A DNA stretch of 62,900 bases, the filler included, from Globobulimina sp. (lineage: Eukaryota), in the NCBI GenBank assembly GCA_003354225.1. It is 24 parts of 24 records of this genome, joined end to end, with 100 filler letters (N's around TTAATTAATTAA, not from the genome) between each part and the next. Parts side by side here need not be neighbours in the genome. Positions count along the whole stretch, not along the records: positions 47,265 to 49,787 come from PIVH01006180.1; positions 49,888 to 52,410 come from PIVH01006181.1; 22 more parts are not named here. One strand, 5' to 3'. Positions 34,261 through 55,033 of the stretch are shown in pieces. A program made the translations under genes and the position numbers. Below the pieces are notes generated by a model, which saw only the letters and a list, made by a program, of their open reading frames with translations, was not told the origin of the DNA and ran no database searches. Position 1 is the stretch's first letter. Each line of letters starts with the position of its first letter.

Positions 34261-35911
34261 TCAGTCTCCAGAATCTGACTCGTCGGAATCATCTTCGTCA
34301 TCGGAAGAGTCGCCCGGATTATCACTTAATTCGCCATTCCTATATCTCTCTAACTGCGTGTATAGAAAATGAGCGTGGGCCTTATTCTTTATCCGAAACG
34401 CATCTTGCACCGCTTCAATGGTTTCACAATAATCAGATAAGATGGACCATGTAATTATTCCCTTGGATTCAAATGTATTGACATACGCCCTCATTACATT
34501 TTGTTTTTTTAACCATTCCCGAAATTGCATTGTTTCCTCATTAAATTTGCCAATAAATTTCACCAATAATTTGCCCTCCAACTTATTTTGTACTCCAATA
34601 GTTTCCTTTAAAAAGGGCACATCAAAATGTTCCACCATTCTTATATCATTGGCTCCCGCCGTCTTAAACCTCTCCAAATAGTGCGGCATCCCAATGGTCG
34701 CTAATAAGAAATTCTCGAATAAATCATGAATAGACGCCCCTGTACCCACTATCAAGCGACGTCGATTTCGACTCTGTTTCTCATCAGTCACAAATTTATC
34801 GATTTCATCTACTTTTTTCCTCTCAATCTCCAATTCGCCGCGCAATTTCTTTAGATCCTCTTTTAATGCATTCACTTCTTCATTGGATGCGGCATTCCCA
34901 ACAAATTGGACCTGTCCAGTTGACGATGGGTTTGGCGACGCCCCGCGCCGTCGGTTCATATTATTCATATTGGCCTGTTTTTCATCATCATGGCCGCCGC
35001 CGCCACCACCACCACCTGCGGTGCTCGCTTTTTTTTTTTTAGTTTTAGCCACTGTCGGTTTATTTAACTTTTTTAGAGCCATAGCATTTTTTTTCATAAT
35101 GCTTCTCATATTTTCCTTTTCAGTCTCAAGCGCAGCTTTTTTCTTTGGGTCGGCATCGGAGCAGGCCGCGAGCACTTTTTTCAAATGTTTTTTCTCTTTG
35201 TCTTTGCCCATAAATATGGCCACCGACGCCATGAAGCGGATGGCCTGCTTCTTTGTGTCATTGTTCCTGTTGTCAGTGTCCGTAATCGCAGAGTCCAACA
35301 CTTCGCCGGATTTTAATAATTTCTTCCATTCATCTTTGGCTTTGCTGGGGTTTGTTTCAGCGGCCTCCGACAAAAAGGACCAAAACGCGCCTTTAACGAT
35401 GGGATTGGCAGATTGCAACATTGTGGTAATTGCGCCGCTCCATCGGCCAACTTCGCCACATTTCGACCATAAAACGATTAAAACCGGCGTTACAAATCGA
35501 AACACCTTCTTTTCCACCCATTGCTTCATTAATGCTTCCGCTAATTTCGCATTCTTCTTCTCGTAAATGGTGGGATTCAAACCAGGCAATGATTTGGTTA
35601 ATATTTGCAACAATTTCACCCGCGTAAAGACGTGTTGTTCTATGTCCAACCATTGGATGAAATAATTCATTGCTTTCTCTGTTTTTTTGCCTCCTTTGAT
35701 TTTGGTGCCTTCCGCCAGTGGCTCTAATATGTCCCATACGTCGTTGCAACACGCAAACCGACCTTTCCATTTCTCTGCTTCTCCTGCGTTCGTAAACCAT
35801 TCCTCTGGTAGTTTACCGTATGGATCCCTATATAATATAATATAATATATGCGTATAGTGAGTGTATACATATGTGCATGATATATGTGTACAACTACTC
35901 AACTCAGACAT
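34261..35911 (-). CDS. Single TOG/HEAT-like domain plus coiled coil plus two C-terminal SAM-like domains; intron 35903-35828
   Basis: Spliced start MSE|DPYGKLPEEWF..EKWKGR resembles a TOG domain start, followed by HEAT-like helices. FLLATIGMPHYLERFKTAG and WLKKQNVMRAYVNTFESKGI are SAM-like. Confidence 0.65.
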
Positions 35912-36769: not shown

Positions 36770-39226
36770 CGCACCTTTGCCTCAGAAATTGTGCGCAGAT
36801 TACATAAAAGCGGCAAAGACTTGGCCATGGCCAACAACATAGAGTTCCCATATCACACCCGCTTATTTGGCACCATTGACAAGAAACAATTAGAAAAGCG
36901 CCGAAATGCAATCAATACCTATTTGGAGAGCATCTGTGGCGATGAAAACGTTGTTCGTCACTCATATTTTTTATCTTTCTTTGACTTCAATGATGGGCAA
37001 TACAGCGACTACAACGAGCACAAAATCAACGACAATTACAAGGAAGCACAGTTTCGCTTGAAATGCATCGAGGAAACATTAGAAATCATAGGCATGAATG
37101 GCGGTATCCCGATTGATTCGGCTGATATCACTTCTGACGACATGGAGGATATTCTCATTCCAATCCCGCCGGACAAGGAACACAATTACAAAGAACAGGA
37201 ACTAAATTTCGAAGTCCCTTACGATTTGCATCATTACAAAGACCCCGAATACAAATTAGTAGCGGCTATCTTTGACATCATACAGCAACAATTAGAGATG
37301 AAGGAACAGAGCGATTTGGATGACAATGGCAGCAAAGCACCCTTCCATGTCAGCACAAACAGCAATTTCATGAACTCGTACCATGCGAGCATGCATGCTC
37401 TGAATGCACAGAAACATCAACAGGCAAAGCCACAGCCACCGCCACAGCCTCAGCCCCGTCTACCCAATGGAGACGATTCCCATATAAATGCCAATGCAAA
37501 CACACACAAGAAACATTCACGCAAACATAGCGGCGGTGTGGTGCTACCCTCCCCATTGCCGCCTACGCATTTGCGTGCGATGAGCATTATAGAATCCTCT
37601 TTCACGCCGGCAACGATGATATTTCACCCCTCGATTTCGGCCAAGAGTGGCAAGATTGAGAGCAACATCGATAGCAACAATTATATTGATTTGCAAAACG
37701 AGAATAAATGGACCAGCAATCAGTTTAAAAGTAAGTTTAATTCCTCCATTCGTGGCATAGATGGCGGTCCCCGTATAATCCGGACGGCGTCTGAAGCCAC
37801 TTCCGACCAATCGTTGTCGTATAAGATACCTACATTGGTGTCGCAGGTCTGGAGTAAGATTAGTATTTTGTTGGACGCCAAGAAGGAGTCCATCCCATTG
37901 TTGTTAGCTGCGGTGAACAAGGATTTATATCCCATTATACAAGAGGCCCTGAACGATGTTGCAACGATTATAAAATCATTGTATAACAGTCAGAGTCACA
38001 ACCACCAGAATCAGAGTATGTTGACTGAATACACGCTCAAAGAGAAAGCAGAGGAGAATACTCAGAGTCAGAGTCAGAACCCTCAAAAGCATGGCAAATA
38101 TCTATCTATGTTTGGCCATGGCTATGACGGCGATGAGGACAGTAGCAGCGATAGCGACGGCAGCGAGATTCGTCGCAGTATCGGCATCCGGCATTTTCCA
38201 TTCATTTCCGCCATGCGGCAATATTGCATATCAGAGTCGAGACTGTATGAATTTTTCTTAGCTTTTGAGAATTTGGCCATTGACAATATCTTCGGACATC
38301 TAGATGTAGACAGCGATGCTAATGAGAATAACAAGTATAAATATATACATTTATTGAGCTATAATTATAACATATTATCCAATACGTCGTCGATCAATTT
38401 TACGGACCGCTTGCAACACATCGAACGCATTCATAATCAAATAAATTTAATTTTGTGTGAGATCATCTATGCGGTTTTAAAGTGTATGATGAAGTGTTTG
38501 GGCGACATCATTTTATACAAAGATTTGTTGGAAGAGACCTTCATTGCTTGCGGCGATACTTTCGATCAGGACGTGATTAATAAGCATGAGGATTCTTTGT
38601 TGAATATTTTACGCGACAGCGGCTATAATATATCCTTTATTGTCGACGATTTGAAACAAAAAATTAAATCTCAGTTTAAAGAGTATTCATCGGTCATTTT
38701 CAATCCTTTGTTAGATGGCATCTCGACCATTGGTGAGATCTCTTTGAATTGTATTTGTTTGATGATATCGCAGTTTGTGTTCGATGACGGACAATTTCCA
38801 CTCAATATCAATACATTTCGCTCCTCTTTTATACAAATATGGTTCCAGCCGCTTGATTATTATATTTCTGATGTTACAGAATGCGTTTTTTATATTTTAT
38901 ATCAATCCTCGATTGGTTTGGTTCATTCCGCATCGCAAGACTTATTACAAAATAATATCTTTAATTATGCGTCGAGTTCTAATTCACATTCAACCTCTAC
39001 TTGGTATCAAATATTGCGGGGACAAAATATTAAAAATATTTCGCGCAAAATACCCCCAATCTTAAATAAAAATATTTCCACAAAGGATATTTTGGATTTA
39101 GTCATTGAACGGACACTCACCAACATTGTGGATGAAACCTTGATTTATATCAAACTTGAATGTGAAAAAGCATTTTTTTTAAAATTTCAAAAAAAGGAAC
39201 AACGACTTTTTAATTATGACTTCTGA
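36770..39226 (+). CDS. PX-domain protein with long helical C-terminus, 5'-truncated
   Basis: FPYHTRLFG..KKQLEKRRNAINTYLESI..VVRHSYFLSFF is the C-terminal half of a PX domain; 811-aa open frame. Confidence 0.75.
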   Translation, partial: RTFASEIVRRLHKSGKDLAMANNIEFPYHTRLFGTIDKKQLEKRRNAINTYLESICGDENVVRHSYFLSFFDFNDGQYSDYNEHKINDNYKEAQFRLKCIEETLEIIGMNGGIPIDSADITSDDMEDILIPIPPDKEHNYKEQELNFEVPYDLHHYKDPEYKLVAAIFDIIQQQLEMKEQSDLDDNGSKAPFHVSTNSNFMNSYHASMHALNAQKHQQAKPQPPPQPQPRLPNGDDSHINANANTHKKHSRKHSGGVVLPSPLPPTHLRAMSIIESSFTPATMIFHPSISAKSGKIESNIDSNNYIDLQNENKWTSNQFKSKFNSSIRGIDGGPRIIRTASEATSDQSLSYKIPTLVSQVWSKISILLDAKKESIPLLLAAVNKDLYPIIQEALNDVATIIKSLYNSQSHNHQNQSMLTEYTLKEKAEENTQSQSQNPQKHGKYLSMFGHGYDGDEDSSSDSDGSEIRRSIGIRHFPFISAMRQYCISESRLYEFFLAFENLAIDNIFGHLDVDSDANENNKYKYIHLLSYNYNILSNTSSINFTDRLQHIERIHNQINLILCEIIYAVLKCMMKCLGDIILYKDLLEETFIACGDTFDQDVINKHEDSLLNILRDSGYNISFIVDDLKQKIKSQFKEYSSVIFNPLLDGISTIGEISLNCICLMISQFVFDDGQFPLNINTFRSSFIQIWFQPLDYYISDVTECVFYILYQSSIGLVHSASQDLLQNNIFNYASSSNSHSTSTWYQILRGQNIKNISRKIPPILNKNISTKDILDLVIERTLTNIVDETLIYIKLECEKAFFLKFQKKEQRLFNYDF

Positions 39227-49775: not shown

Positions 49776-50024
49776 GTAGAGGACTCCNNNNNNNNNNNNN
49801 NNNNNNNNNNNNNNNNNNNNNNNNNNNNNNNTTAATTAATTAANNNNNNNNNNNNNNNNNNNNNNNNNNNNNNNNNNNNNNNNNNNNTCACAGGATTGGT
49901 TCTGGTGAATACAAAGAAGTTAAAAGTTTTTTTTCTGTACTTTGGCTTGTTATTATCGATGGTTTATTCAAGAAATTCGGACATCTCGCGGGGGTTCAGA
50001 ATGGGGGCTGCATAGCTCCCCTCG

Positions 50025-50270
50025 AACCATATTGTTATACCAATTGGATTAACCCCTAACCTATAATATAACCATATTTATATACCAAATGGATTACCCC
50101 CTAACCTATAATATAACCATATTGATATACCAAATGGATTAACCCCTAACCTATAATATAACCATATTGATATACCAAATGGATTAACCCCTAACCCATA
50201 ATATATTCATATTTATATTACAAATGGGTTAACCCCTAACCCATAACATATCCATATTTATATTACAAAT
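50025..50270. repeat. 45-bp tandem array (about 5.5 copies) with telomere-like core TAACCCCTAACC
   Basis: Units start at 50025, 50070, 50115, 50160, 50205 and 50250. Consensus AACCATATTGATATACCAAATGGATTAACCCCTAACCTATAATAT. Confidence 0.95.
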
Positions 50271-50282
50271 CATCTCAATCCA

Positions 50283-52280
50283 TCATCTCAATGACTTCTT
50301 TTTCTTTCGTGTTTTTTCTTATTGGTTTTTTTGATGATGTGCTGGCTGAATTAACAAACAATTTGATACATCCTCTACTGACATCTGATCCTACCATTCT
50401 TTCACTGTCTTTTGCTAACGGTAGTTTATACATGTACACTATGAAAATACTTCAAAAAAAAAAAATACAAAACTGATTGTTATGCATCTTTTATTTTTTG
50501 GATTGGTCTCTTTTATCCTTCCTGATGCAATCAATTCAGAAAACCTCGGATTTCTCTTCAACTCCCTCATAAACCACGAAATCTTTTTATCCACTTTCTC
50601 ATTATTTAATAAATCATTTTCCAAAGCAATTATACTTGGAACTGAAGATTGCAAAAACATATTTACAAGATATAAATCTCTGCTTGAAAATACGGAGGTC
50701 TTTGGTGCATCAAACTGCAAATATGTGAATAAATTTGCTGCACTATATGCCGTGTCTGCCTCTTTTGATTCTTCATACTCATAATGGAAGATTCTCGGCA
50801 ATGAACGGAAATAGTCGCATATTTTCAGTTTATCTTTAATACTCCTCCGAAAATTCGTAGTTTGGACACGGAGCATCTCGGGTACTTTATCCCAGGCTAA
50901 TGTTCCTGGACGAACAAACGCGATAACCGCCCAGGCTGCATATAATGTTATTGTATATTGTTGAGCTTGCTCAGTTTTCAACATTTTCACCACATTTTCA
51001 TCTGGAGTGAAACATACAAACTTCTCCGTCACCACGTCAGCGGGCGTATTATAAGTAATGGCAGATGTATTTGCAATAATTCTGGCACCAACAGATGATG
51101 TATAATCAGAATATTTATTAGCATTTTGATTCACAATATAAGTCGCCTTATTTGGAGTGTCGAACGCTGTCGGTCCAAACAGTGTTTCTAATGTACCATC
51201 AGGCTGTATATGTTTCTTTAATTTACTACCATTTGTAATTTGATTCCTCTCCCTGCCAGATGCTTCATCCACATGAAAACCAGTTGAAAATCTGTGTTTA
51301 TGATTTTGTTTCTTTCCTGCTCTTAAATAATCCTCTCCACCGGTCCCTTGCCATGTCCTTGAAGATAAAACATTAACCCTGTGTGTATCGATGAAATACG
51401 TCAAATAGGAAAAAAGTACTTCAAATAGAAAAAACTATATACTTTGGACGCAATGCTTTTCTCTCATGAATGCATGCTGAGCTTTTCGCACTCCATCCAT
51501 CATCCACATTGCATAATCATCCACCTGTTTGGCACCAAAGTGCTGATTTGTGTTGATCTAAAGGTTAATAACCATTCCAAAACATCCATATTTTGTGATG
51601 CTAAATTAAAAAATACTTTATTTACGGCTTCTTCTGGTAACAATTTTTCAAATGCAATGAATTTATTTTCTATTTGACCAACCATTAAATCTTCCGGTCT
51701 TCCATACCCAATGATTGGTTTCGATTGCACAGCATAAAAACAAAAATTGCTCGCAGGAAATATAAAATCATGACCATTTAAATCCTCAACACGAACGGAT
51801 TCTGTGTTCATCGCGATAAATCTCCCAATATTTTCTAAGTCAACCCCTGAAAATGAAAATGCTTTGACTGCGACACATTGTGCATTTAATATTCTTTGCA
51901 ATATTTTTTTAGCTTTCTCACTGTAATCATTCGATACAGGTCTACCCTGATCATCTTTTTCTCGATTTTTTAAATTTCGGAATAATTCAATGTATTCGCC
52001 ACGTGCATATTGATATCCTATGCATGTTTTGCAAGTTAATTTGACACGTTACTTCAAATTAAAAAAATGACATACCTTGACTTAAATGATATATAAATTC
52101 AGTATAAGGAGTAGGATGTTCTGAGCCCTTTTCGCCACAATACCAATGAAAAGCATTCCCAGCCCATACCAAGATCGATAAATTCTCTGATTTTATCGTC
52201 CTGATTTTTTCTTTACAAACTAATATCGCTAAATAAACAGCAGCTTGTCTCGCATGCAATGTTTTTAATTTGTTAAACAT
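50283..52280 (-). CDS. Spliced D5-like (poxvirus D5/phage P4-type) superfamily 3 helicase gene; introns 52075-52018, 51442-51379, 50473-50415; +1 frame break at about 51502; 5' end uncertain
   Basis: D5_N-like EDLNGHDFIFPASN..GRPEDL, Walker A G-DGWSAKS, Walker B FHVDE, KLKKHI, motif C YIVNQN, Arg finger GARII, PDENVVKML, and winged-helix-like FSSRDLY, all in the expected order. Confidence 0.65.
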
Positions 52281-52510
52281 CAAATCCAAATATGGGAATG
52301 GTTCTCAAATAAAAAGGTTCGATGGTTAGGATCAAACACATGCGGTGAATCGTTCGAAATGTGGCAGGTATTCGAATATATCAACGATGTACGAACAGGA
52401 AACAATACAANNNNNNNNNNNNNNNNNNNNNNNNNNNNNNNNNNNNNNNNNNNNTTAATTAATTAANNNNNNNNNNNNNNNNNNNNNNNNNNNNNNNNNN
52501 NNNNNNNNNN

Positions 52511-55033
52511 TCGGCGTGATCTTGTTTGCATTCTTTAAAATTGTGTATATTCCATAAAAATTCATCATAATCTTTTTTATCCCATTGTTGTTTGAGTTGG
52601 ACCCAACTTTCAATTTGATGTAAATACAAATGTAACTGATTATTATTTGTATTAATATTATTATTCGCACCCACTGGCACTGTGTATGGATAATAGCCGC
52701 CAATTAATAATAAAGGAAATGGTATTAACGGATCAAATGAAACGCCTAAATGTCCGGGATCGATAAACGAGGAAGCAATGGTTGTATGGAATTTGACCAT
52801 TACACAACTTAAATCCTCCAACCATCGCAATTTTTGCATATGATTTACTAATACCTGTGCTTGCACACTTAATTTAAAGCCATATTCTGTTTGAAGTGCA
52901 TCCTCAGCTTCATTATTGATATCATTATTATTATTCGGGGAGTGGGTGGTAAAATGTATTAAGACACAATCGCCAGGCACTGTTATTTTATTTGGCCATT
53001 TGTTTGATGCTCCATAAATGGGCGAGGTTACAGACACAAAGCCATTACAGGTTTTTGTAAAAAACTGAAGAAAATCTTTTTCTGAACAGGTACAACATAA
53101 AGTTTTATCAAAGGTAATAACAAGTTCTTTGGCGCCGGGAATCGTTACTAATTTTTTAATTGTTTTCCCCAATGGGTATGGATGTGGCGATTCTCTTAAT
53201 TCATGAACAGTTTTATATTGTTTCCGTAGTTTGTTTTTACAATAATTATTACTTTTTGTTAATATAACATCAGTTAATTTTAATAAGTCTGAAATATGCG
53301 GCGTCAATAAATTATTAAATAGCTTGTTTCGCATTAAATGTTTAAATAATTTCTGTTGTTGTGTGTCTTTGGCAGTGCTCTCAATCAAAGCTAATAAATT
53401 TGTCAATAACGGAATTGTTATTTTTCCGAAAAATGATTTGTGTAATACATCACAATTATTTTCAAACAAAAACGATAATTCATTCGACTCATTTAAATCT
53501 TGGTTAATATTATTAATGTCTTCGAGTATTTGTTTTGATATAGAAATGACATGCTTTGCATATTGAAATAAATATTTATCGATATTTTTTTGTTGGGTTG
53601 TTTCAAGACTGCCAATATTAATATCTTCAGACATTTTATACCATACTTCTTGTAAAGAAATGGGGATATTCTCCGAAAATTGCTGCATTGCTTCCGTTTT
53701 ATCTCCATATTCAAATTTTGATTGATAACGGAATAATAGCATGGATTGCAAATCTAATAATAACTGAGCCATCCTCTCATTAGGAGAGCTATCTAAATTA
53801 TTTATATCAATCCAACAATTTGAGGCTAACATTTCTAAGGTACCAAAAAATAATTGATAACATTTCATTGATTGCTTATCCTCATCATCTTGTTTTTTCT
53901 CATCGATAGCGCCATTTGATTCATTTGAAGACAACAAAGAGTCAATAAATTGCGAGGGTGAACCAACGGAACCAAATTGATTCAGCATAACTGGCAAAGT
54001 ATGATTAATTTCAATATGTGTAATATTCGATAAATTGTCAACCAAATCATCCGTAAACTGAGCTAAAAACATTTTTAATTTCGTATTATCAGTGGTCTGC
54101 TGCTCAATTTCTTGCTGTCTTATTAATAATGCTAATAAGTATATTAATTTCGTATTAATTGTATTAAAAAATATTTTTTGTCCTTTCACCAATGCGTTTG
54201 CTGCAGCTTTTGTTAATGGGTTTGGTAAATTTGGTATTGAGCGCATTATTGTTAATAAAATGCATTTTAATTCTTTGATGCGATTGCTTGGTATACAAAA
54301 ATTATCGATGGTAATGCGTAATTTGTCAATTGCAGAAACTTGAACAGTTAGTAATTGCAATGAATGATACAATATGCGACACATTATATTATTTTTATTG
54401 GTTTGCAACTCATTTGATGCTAAGAATAATATTTCATTCAATATTCCCAACACTTTAAATGAACAATCAATGTGAAGAGGGGCACTCAGTGCATCTTTAT
54501 TTAATTTATTATTATTTTCCTTCTTTATTGCAATTAATTGCAACTCTGATAATAAGATAACACATAATTGTAAGCCACTCAGTGCATTCTCAGAATCATT
54601 AAATTGTATGTATTTATTCACCGATGAGGAGGGATGGAATTCGTCAGTGTCGTTGGCTTGTTTTTCATTATTACTATGCAATGAATGTAATTTGTTTAAT
54701 ATCTTGGACACATTATAGATTTTATTATGATTTTCTTTTTGGGATAACAGCATTTTTACAATGGACAACATATCAAATAAACTGCCTCTTGCAATGGCAA
54801 CAGCAATCATTACACGTACACATTGATTTGGTTGTTTATTGTCGACGGCAATCGACTTCATAAAATCCATCAAATCATCATATGGATCATCATCTGCGTC
54901 GCCATTATTATTATCATTTGTATTGTCCTCTAAAATAATAGCTAAGATATTTAATATTTGCGGTACAACGGATGGGTCATTTTTCGCTGTAGATTTGACC
55001 AAAACTTTTAATATTTCCATAATCCATCTATTC
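52511..55033 (-). CDS. Internal fragment of a giant protein resembling HECTD4/HERC-type E3 ligases (CUB-like domain)
   Basis: AVAIARGSLFDML; ESPHPY..VTIPGAKELVITFD..DFLQFF..WPNKITVPGD..EYGFKLSV; open across the whole contig. Confidence 0.6.

Follow-up and report, generated by a model that had tools for sequence, protein, structure and literature searches.

A 2523-bp contig with 34.6% G+C, which makes up positions 49888-52410 of the analyzed window (the whole 62,900-nucleotide stretch of Globobulimina sp. DNA), carries a split gene on its minus strand, interrupted by a single +1 frame break. In our reading, this contig probably carries a decayed nuclear copy of a lineage-restricted and very divergent family of D5-like superfamily 3 (SF3) helicases of viral or mobile-element ancestry. 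The data show how the gene is built, where its frame breaks, which homologues it has and in what order its motifs stand; SF3 membership, a viral origin and loss of function of this copy are inferred. So far, the family has been seen only in foraminiferal data sets, in one ENA contig and in the genome of the window. An earlier note on this DNA had described the contig as an intron-containing D5-like helicase gene with a structured downstream end; its claims are taken up below where the evidence bears on them.

Homologues and gene structure

With the last exon as the query, phmmer identified four matches at E <= 0.001 among 1,835,955,588 representative proteins. P0001 (E 7.5e-27, 37% identity) and P0004 (E 3.5e-10, 25% identity) are from the EukProt set labelled Nonionella stella, P0003 (E 4.9e-12, 39% identity) is from the EukProt set labelled Bolivina argentea, and P0002 (E 4.1e-20, 31% identity) is encoded on a 2651-nt ENA contig. 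A fifth protein, P0005 (617 residues), belongs to the cluster of P0001 and likewise to the N. stella set. With no more than 28% identity between them, P0001 and P0004 represent two deep paralogues within N. stella. The protein predicted from the window gene by reading through its frame break aligns with the 625-residue P0004 from end to end, exon 1 included.

Searches for relatives in viral and metagenomic contigs were negative. No relative was found among the IMG/VR contigs (queried with the family alignment, P0004, P0002, P0005 and a back-translated motif pattern) or among the JGI metagenome contigs (queried with the family alignment and the motif pattern). In a positive control, the motif pattern did retrieve the window gene. 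Its single JGI match (L095) reads VVDEATWPG.., has no further likeness to the family and was rejected as a chance match. A word-indexed protein search returned nothing at E <= 0.01 for the last exon and only P0004 itself for the family alignment, and when the last exon and P0001 were compared by tblastn with 50,697 phage records, the matches were at chance level only (E 0.3 and 6).

P0005 has a C-terminal extension of about 170 residues (residues ~445-617) without a counterpart in the window gene, P0002, P0003 or P0004. The only library matches of this extension are sub-threshold ones to CheB methylesterase (E 0.018-0.022).

The coding signal of the contig is all on the minus strand. The three open reading frames (ORFs) at 52059-52304, 51500-52048 and 50439-51434 are parts of one gene, as had been proposed, and the read-through product has 573 residues, one X at the break included, rather than the approximately 600 estimated at first. 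Coordinates of exons, introns, motifs and other features are collected in the table.

Features of the contig at 49888-52410 (window coordinates; an empty cell means that no strand applies)
Feature	Coordinates	Strand	Remarks
Whole contig	49888-52410		artificial linkers N44-TTAATTAATTAA-N44 at both edges
Exon 1 (visible part)	52076-52280	-	ATG at 52280; frame 1 up to GTATGT donor at 52075
Intron 1	52018-52075	-	58 nt, GTATGT...CATAG; phase 1; connects frame 1 to frame 2
Exon 2, first part	51515-52017	-	frame 2; ends ..STLVPNRWMI; BLASTP to P0001 E 1e-18
+1 frame break	51503-51516	-	one surplus base within 14 nt; uncorrected translation ends at TGA 51502-51500
Exon 2, second part	51443-51513	-	frame 0, open from 51516 and reading LCNVDDGWSAKSSACIHERKALRPK up to GTATAT donor at 51442
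Intron 2	51379-51442	-	64 nt, GTATAT...CACAG; phase 2, Lys codon split; in-frame TAG at start
Last exon	50439-51378	-	312 codons (51378-50442) and TAG (50441-50439)
Walker B FHVDEAS	51278-51258	-	last exon; residues 295-301 of the read-through protein, P-loop Lys at 247
Motif C YIVNQN	51140-51123	-	last exon
Arg segment VGARIIANTS	51092-51063	-	last exon
Conserved C-terminal region	50582-50550 (ISWFMRELKRN), 50522-50469 (GRIKE..CITISF)	-	last exon
Tandem array	50025-50270		45 bp x 5.5 copies, 92% matches, score 373; downstream of the gene
G+C-rich imperfect hairpin	49993-50028		-9.6 kcal/mol, z -0.95; indistinguishable from chance

Support for the introns is sequence-based and consists of reading frames, in-frame stops and continuity with the homologues. 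Three spliceosomal-type GT-AG introns of 58-64 nt had been proposed, and two of them hold up. GT..AG borders, restoration of the frame and homologue continuity coincide for 52075-52018 and 51442-51379, where the homologues are gapless across the junctions (P0004 for intron 1, P0001 and P0004 for intron 2). They do not coincide for the third candidate, 51616-51558 (59 nt, GTATTT..TTTAG). This segment encodes residues 135-154 of the frame-2 ORF and lies within an ungapped BLASTP alignment to P0001 that covers query residues 75-165 (E 1e-18), and the frame that would be opened by splicing it out shows no similarity to P0001 (BLASTP E 3.5). Because 51616-51558 is coding sequence, we count two supported introns, not three. 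Exon 1 matches residues 119-142 of P0004 (9 of 24 identical, BLASTP E 0.005) and is collinear with it in the family alignment. More exons may exist upstream, because P0004 extends about 90 residues further in the N-terminal direction.

The starts of the two supported introns resemble each other. The motif TTTTnnATTTGAAGTA is found approximately 10-15 nt downstream of the GTAT donor in both (52050-52065 and 51417-51432, minus strand), and the intron starts together with four exon bases are 80% alike across 30 nt. Allowing up to one mismatch, TTTTnnATTTGAAGTA has 4 matches in the window (0.16 expected), 3 of them within the helicase gene. A duplication may link the two introns; alternatively, the organism may use the motif as an intron signal. 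The third copy in the gene (50448-50463, minus strand) is part of a 30-nt GTAT..CATAG stretch across the stop codon (50439-50468). Splicing of this stretch, if any, would turn the C-terminus ..ITISFVFFFFEVFS into ..ITISFCTCINYR; the stretch is far shorter than the two supported introns, and the homologues back neither C-terminal ending.

Codon usage of the gene correlates with that of the pooled long ORFs of the other window contigs (r = 0.90; values for these ORFs themselves, 0.14-0.89). Introns and host-like codon usage together argue for nuclear residence of the window copy and fit a long residence, in line with the host-style, long-resident nuclear gene that had been suggested. One could go further and regard the family as the replicative helicase of an undescribed lineage of foraminiferal nuclear DNA viruses or elements, with an eroded copy in the window and with the N. 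stella and B. argentea transcripts stemming from live ones. The nuclear stay of this lineage would then have been long enough for a hallmark replication gene to gain spliceosomal introns and host codon usage. We consider this extension tentative and rather improbable.

Frame break and degenerate P-loop

Frame 2 is closed by the TGA at 51502-51500, and frame 0 is open from 51516. Dropping one base anywhere in 51516-51503 produces exactly the P0001 spacing between the PNR residues and the P-loop. The frame-0 piece 51516-51442 (..DDGWSAKSS..ALRPK) matches P0001 residues 142-167 (CDVFADGGMSGKST..) with 13 of 26 residues identical (BLASTP E 6e-6). The +1 break, already recognized in the earlier note, is confirmed and lies just before Walker A. 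It also recurs in the assembly of one run: a 2670-nt Logan contig of run X1 spans 50259-52410 with 0 gaps and 2 differing letters, and because this contig is gapless across the break, the surplus base is reproduced by a second assembly. Runs X2 and X3 contain next to none of the contig stretch.

The surplus base sits eight codons ahead of a degenerate P-loop. The window copy reads DDGWSAKS (51504-51481, minus strand); the corresponding sequence is DGGMSGKS in P0001 and P0005 and GGSGKT in P0004. Alanine replaces the glycine that precedes the lysine in the homologues, and aspartate stands at the place of another P0001 glycine. A Walker A motif ending in GK[ST] is thus present in P0001, P0005 (GGMSGKS) and P0004 (GGSGKT) and absent from the window copy. 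Without correction, the reading frame is 240 residues long. That two lesions lie so close together, within 15 codons, suggests that the window copy has decayed. Because of the surplus base and the Ala-for-Gly replacement in the P-loop, it would give only a 240-residue fragment, not a helicase.

Two points qualify this reading. The gene is otherwise open over 573 codons, a pattern that fits either very recent decay or an error, and the agreement of run X1 on the surplus base is not fully independent, because X1 may underlie the window assembly. The gene might thus be intact and functional, with the break due to a sequencing or assembly error and the protein a domesticated host NTPase or helicase. 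This would account for a single break in approximately 573 codons, for the retained Walker B, sensor Asn and Arg, for the host-like codon usage and for the presence of homologues in transcriptome sets; moreover, a +1 shift anywhere in 51516-51503, stop included, gives back the homologue spacing. Against it, the Logan contig of run X1 repeats the break without a gap, the break lies outside any homopolymer, and the P-loop that follows within 15 codons has Ala for the Gly of GK[ST] and Asp for a P0001 Gly. We therefore regard an intact gene as unlikely, and a programmed +1 shift at the TGA as a far less likely source of the break.

Probable assignment to D5/P4-type helicases

As judged from sequence comparison, the family likely belongs to the D5/P4/VapE-like clade. 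Its motifs follow the order GGxSGK[ST], hydrophobic run with VDE, QN and Arg, with spacings of 51, 47 and 14 residues in the window protein. The order of Walker A, Walker B, motif C and Arg is thus as had been stated, with a Walker A that is degenerate in the window copy. Walker B lies about 50 residues past the P-loop lysine, and the homologues have VDEAS or VEECS at this place.

Among 24,736 Pfam models searched at E <= 1, DUF5906 (PF19263) was the sole match for P0001 (E 0.098, 13.7 bits, residues 192-251), and it also matched P0005 (E 0.14, 13.3 bits). In the ESM Atlas, all 30 matches of P0004 residues 225-560 belonged to sets bearing DUF5906 (some with D5_N, Pox_D5 or VapE-like in addition). 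The best of these matches scored 0.96 and had 204 of 256 features in common.

Profile-profile comparison gives a weak signal in the same direction. Using hhalign, we aligned the family with the C-terminal halves of 13 phage D5-like primase-helicases (12 phage records and P4, that is 13 of 456 matching tblastn records, picked for host spread). Scores were 25.7-27.1 (P 0.017-0.018) over 259-282 collinear columns; a separate run gave a score of 26.0 (P 0.026). When the columns of the reference were shuffled, the observed score was reached once in 200 trials; reversing the reference gave 13.4. The ATPase (P-loop) half alone scored 24.6 (P 0.0096), a value reached by none of 100 shuffles. In the alignment, the P-loop, the sensor Asn and the Arg coincide with invariant columns of the reference, the QN and R columns of the family falling on N264 and R279 of the 13 members. 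The alignment stays collinear for approximately 60-90 columns beyond the Arg finger and ends around template columns 303-354, before or at the start of the Pox_D5 region of P4 alpha. Two other reference sets, from a word-indexed search with P4 alpha residues 330-777 and from an IMG/VR scan, contained only sequences at least 89% and at least 88% identical, respectively, and were left unused.

Several results weigh against the assignment. The HH-suite probability for the family against the D5 reference is only 1.9-4.3%. The DUF5906 matches remain far below the gathering cut-off (27.6 bits) and concern two proteins from one 90% cluster. In the ESM Atlas, shuffled proteins reach 0.95 in about 1 of 100 cases, and the figures are uncalibrated for protein parts; with the last exon, the Atlas gave no usable match, the recognition value being under the usual range. 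The window pieces matched no Pfam or PHROG family, P0004 and P0002 had no match in Pfam, NCBIfam or PHROGs, and scans of the homologues against NCBIfam and PHROGs yielded nothing relevant. Searches of PDB sequences gave nothing for the two window pieces and no relative for the family profile. The family profile did not match the phage P4 record, and in comparisons of a hidden Markov model (HMM) against sequences the D5 ORFs were not singled out among 227 phage ORFs. AlphaFold2 models were unusable, with a mean predicted local distance difference test score (pLDDT) of 30.2 for the single sequence and 34.8 for an 8-row alignment.

The D5_N-like segment that had been proposed ahead of the P-loop could not be substantiated: in the comparison with D5_N, this N-terminal half scored 11.0, a value reached by 41 of 100 shuffles, and P0001 alone has an NG dipeptide at the corresponding position. 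The winged-helix-like segment of the earlier note is likewise unsupported.

PPAR-gamma entries of the PDB matched the family profile (E 0.15); these matches are confined to a low-information C-terminal stretch and were discarded.

The alternative is that the family represents another lineage-specific P-loop NTPase (for example, AAA+-like) and that its D5 likeness is generic P-loop similarity. The statistics for SF3 are weak throughout, the D5_N region is not significantly similar, no structural model or PDB match is available, and motif spacing alone is insufficient to separate SF3 from AAA+. This explanation is nevertheless doubtful, as no P-loop family other than DUF5906 was reported among the Pfam models, the ESM neighbours all fall into DUF5906 sets, and the hhalign alignment runs on past the Arg finger. 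Weak but agreeing lines thus support the D5/P4-type assignment of the earlier note, in the sense that the protein is a P-loop NTPase whose closest recognizable kin are D5/P4-type SF3 helicases.

Under this reading, the core of the family would be an SF3-type (D5/P4/DUF5906-like) P-loop helicase that has diverged strongly and descends from a virus or mobile element. Members that are intact, with Walker A GGxSGK[ST], Walker B VDE, the sensor Asn of QN and the Arg finger, would be expected from their family membership to form ring-shaped ATPases that translocate on DNA. The N-terminal region ahead of the motifs appears to be family-specific, without a recognizable primase. Its two spliceosomal introns and host-like codon usage would be traits that the window copy either gained itself or inherited; with the surplus base and the P-loop alanine, it could yield the N-terminal fragment only.

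Surroundings of the gene and comparison with known systems

A tandem array adjacent to the gene does exist, as reported earlier. Run X1 represents 49921-50270 by numerous short contigs that are not joined to one another; loose ends fall at 49921-49922, 50026, 50259 and 50270, and one of these contigs runs on for 255 letters that are unlike the window. The gene-bearing contig of the same run departs from the window at 50259 (24 unlike letters), just inside the gene-side end of the array. Because the array occurs in several contexts, its link with the gene is only one assembly path. The G+C-rich hairpin is at chance level: 37 of 200 shuffled sequences form a fold of equal or greater stability. 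With a chance-level hairpin and an array found in other contexts, the structured downstream end loses its value as a sign of an element.

Each 45-bp array unit contains AACCCCTAACC, with one telomere-like CCCTAA hexamer, which may well be due to chance.

No second gene and no terminal inverted repeats were found in the 2.5-kb contig, Rfam and tRNA scans of it were negative, and the other 23 contigs of the window contain no further copy of the gene. Given the frameshift and the degenerate P-loop of this copy, the self-replicating element that had been envisaged is unsupported at this locus.

D5-type helicases are hallmark genes of nuclear viruses and mobile elements, such as Polinton-like and virophage-like ones. 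One might therefore see the contig as part of a nuclear virus or mobile element, whether Polinton-like, virophage-like or new, that is still live or was active until recently, with the helicase as its replication gene and the repeats as its terminus, all the more as the family is patchy and fast-evolving (members 25-39% identical, two deep N. stella paralogues) and as intron-rich nuclear viruses are on record (10.64898/2026.08.29.747986). We consider this very unlikely: the copy is broken, contig and window yielded no second gene, terminal inverted repeats or further copy, the scans of IMG/VR and JGI contigs gave no relative, the hairpin is not significant, and the array lies in other contexts, with the X1 contig diverging at 50259.

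Other parts of the window do not inform on the surroundings of the gene. The 12-mer TTAATTAATTAA occurs 23 times in the window (0.11 expected), first at 2572-2583, with a spacing of 2622-2627 bases and flanked by N runs each time. These linkers cut the window into 24 contigs arranged by size, from 2527 down to 2522 bp. Because the linkers chain size-sorted contigs artificially, the contigs on either side of 49888-52410 are not its genomic neighbours, and any finding that rests on adjacency across a linker is void. A clathrin heavy-chain fragment precedes the helicase contig and an 840-residue ORF succeeds it; neither is a genomic neighbour. The other contigs encode proteins that are commonplace in eukaryotes (PI3K accessory domain, clathrin, annexin, RRM, PPR, FGGY kinase). 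Three long open frames on other contigs, of 840 (52513-55032, minus strand), 818 (36770-39223, plus strand) and 545 residues (34264-35898, minus strand), matched no Pfam family at E <= 1e-5 and appear to be lineage-specific or fast-evolving proteins of the same organism.

The locus itself is modest, a probable pseudogene on a 2.5-kb contig. Its interest lies in the family. It is known that D5-like helicases of viral type, where they occur within the genomes of protists, mark earlier invasions by viruses or elements, and the present family would add a new group, either Foraminifera or something living with them, in which such traces are hardly documented. To our knowledge, almost no viruses or DNA elements have been described from Foraminifera, and a full-text literature search returned no report of a D5-like helicase in this group. 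The family is divergent enough for standard annotation to miss it, with no Pfam, NCBIfam or PHROG match above threshold. That a hallmark gene of viral replication contains two introns is relevant to the time for which genes of this kind can persist in a nucleus. Should intact and expressed copies lie in element-like contexts, the family would provide a handle for finding foraminiferal viruses or elements.

Among known systems, the D5/P4-type SF3 helicases are closest, as exemplified by phage P4 alpha with its Pfam domains D5_N (PF08706, residues 336-467), DUF5906 (PF19263, 500-608) and Pox_D5 (PF03288, 670-768). In the family, Walker A, Walker B, sensor Asn and Arg finger are ordered and spaced as in these helicases, it is collinear with the 13 phage members in the profile-profile alignment, and DUF5906 is its only Pfam lead. 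In contrast to them, the family is without a primase or Toprim domain and without detectable D5_N similarity, and its divergence is so large that HMM-to-sequence matches fail. The window gene differs further by its eukaryotic host, its spliceosomal introns and its broken state.

D5-like helicase genes are also found within protist genomes, in giant-virus insertions, virophages, Polinton-like viruses and related elements. As in those cases, the window shows a virus-hallmark helicase that lies within the genome of a eukaryote, resembles the host in composition and bears signs of erosion. Unlike them, the 2.5-kb contig contains no capsid, polymerase or integrase gene, and no relative of the family was found in IMG/VR.

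A third comparison concerns the mirusviricot orders Okeanovirales and Styxvirales, which the same report describes as intron-rich nuclear DNA viruses (10.64898/2026.08.29.747986). There as here, spliceosomal introns occur in viral-type genes, and they are taken as a sign of nuclear residence. According to that report, these orders are without replication genes, whereas in the window the intron-bearing gene is itself a replication-type helicase, with no sign of membership in a virus genome. Giant-virus-like contigs associated with a foraminifer are described there as well, and those viruses, according to the same text, do not have a D5-like primase-helicase (10.64898/2026.08.29.747986). Helicases of this type in protist genomes are already known; what is new here is the lineage, the divergence and the introns.

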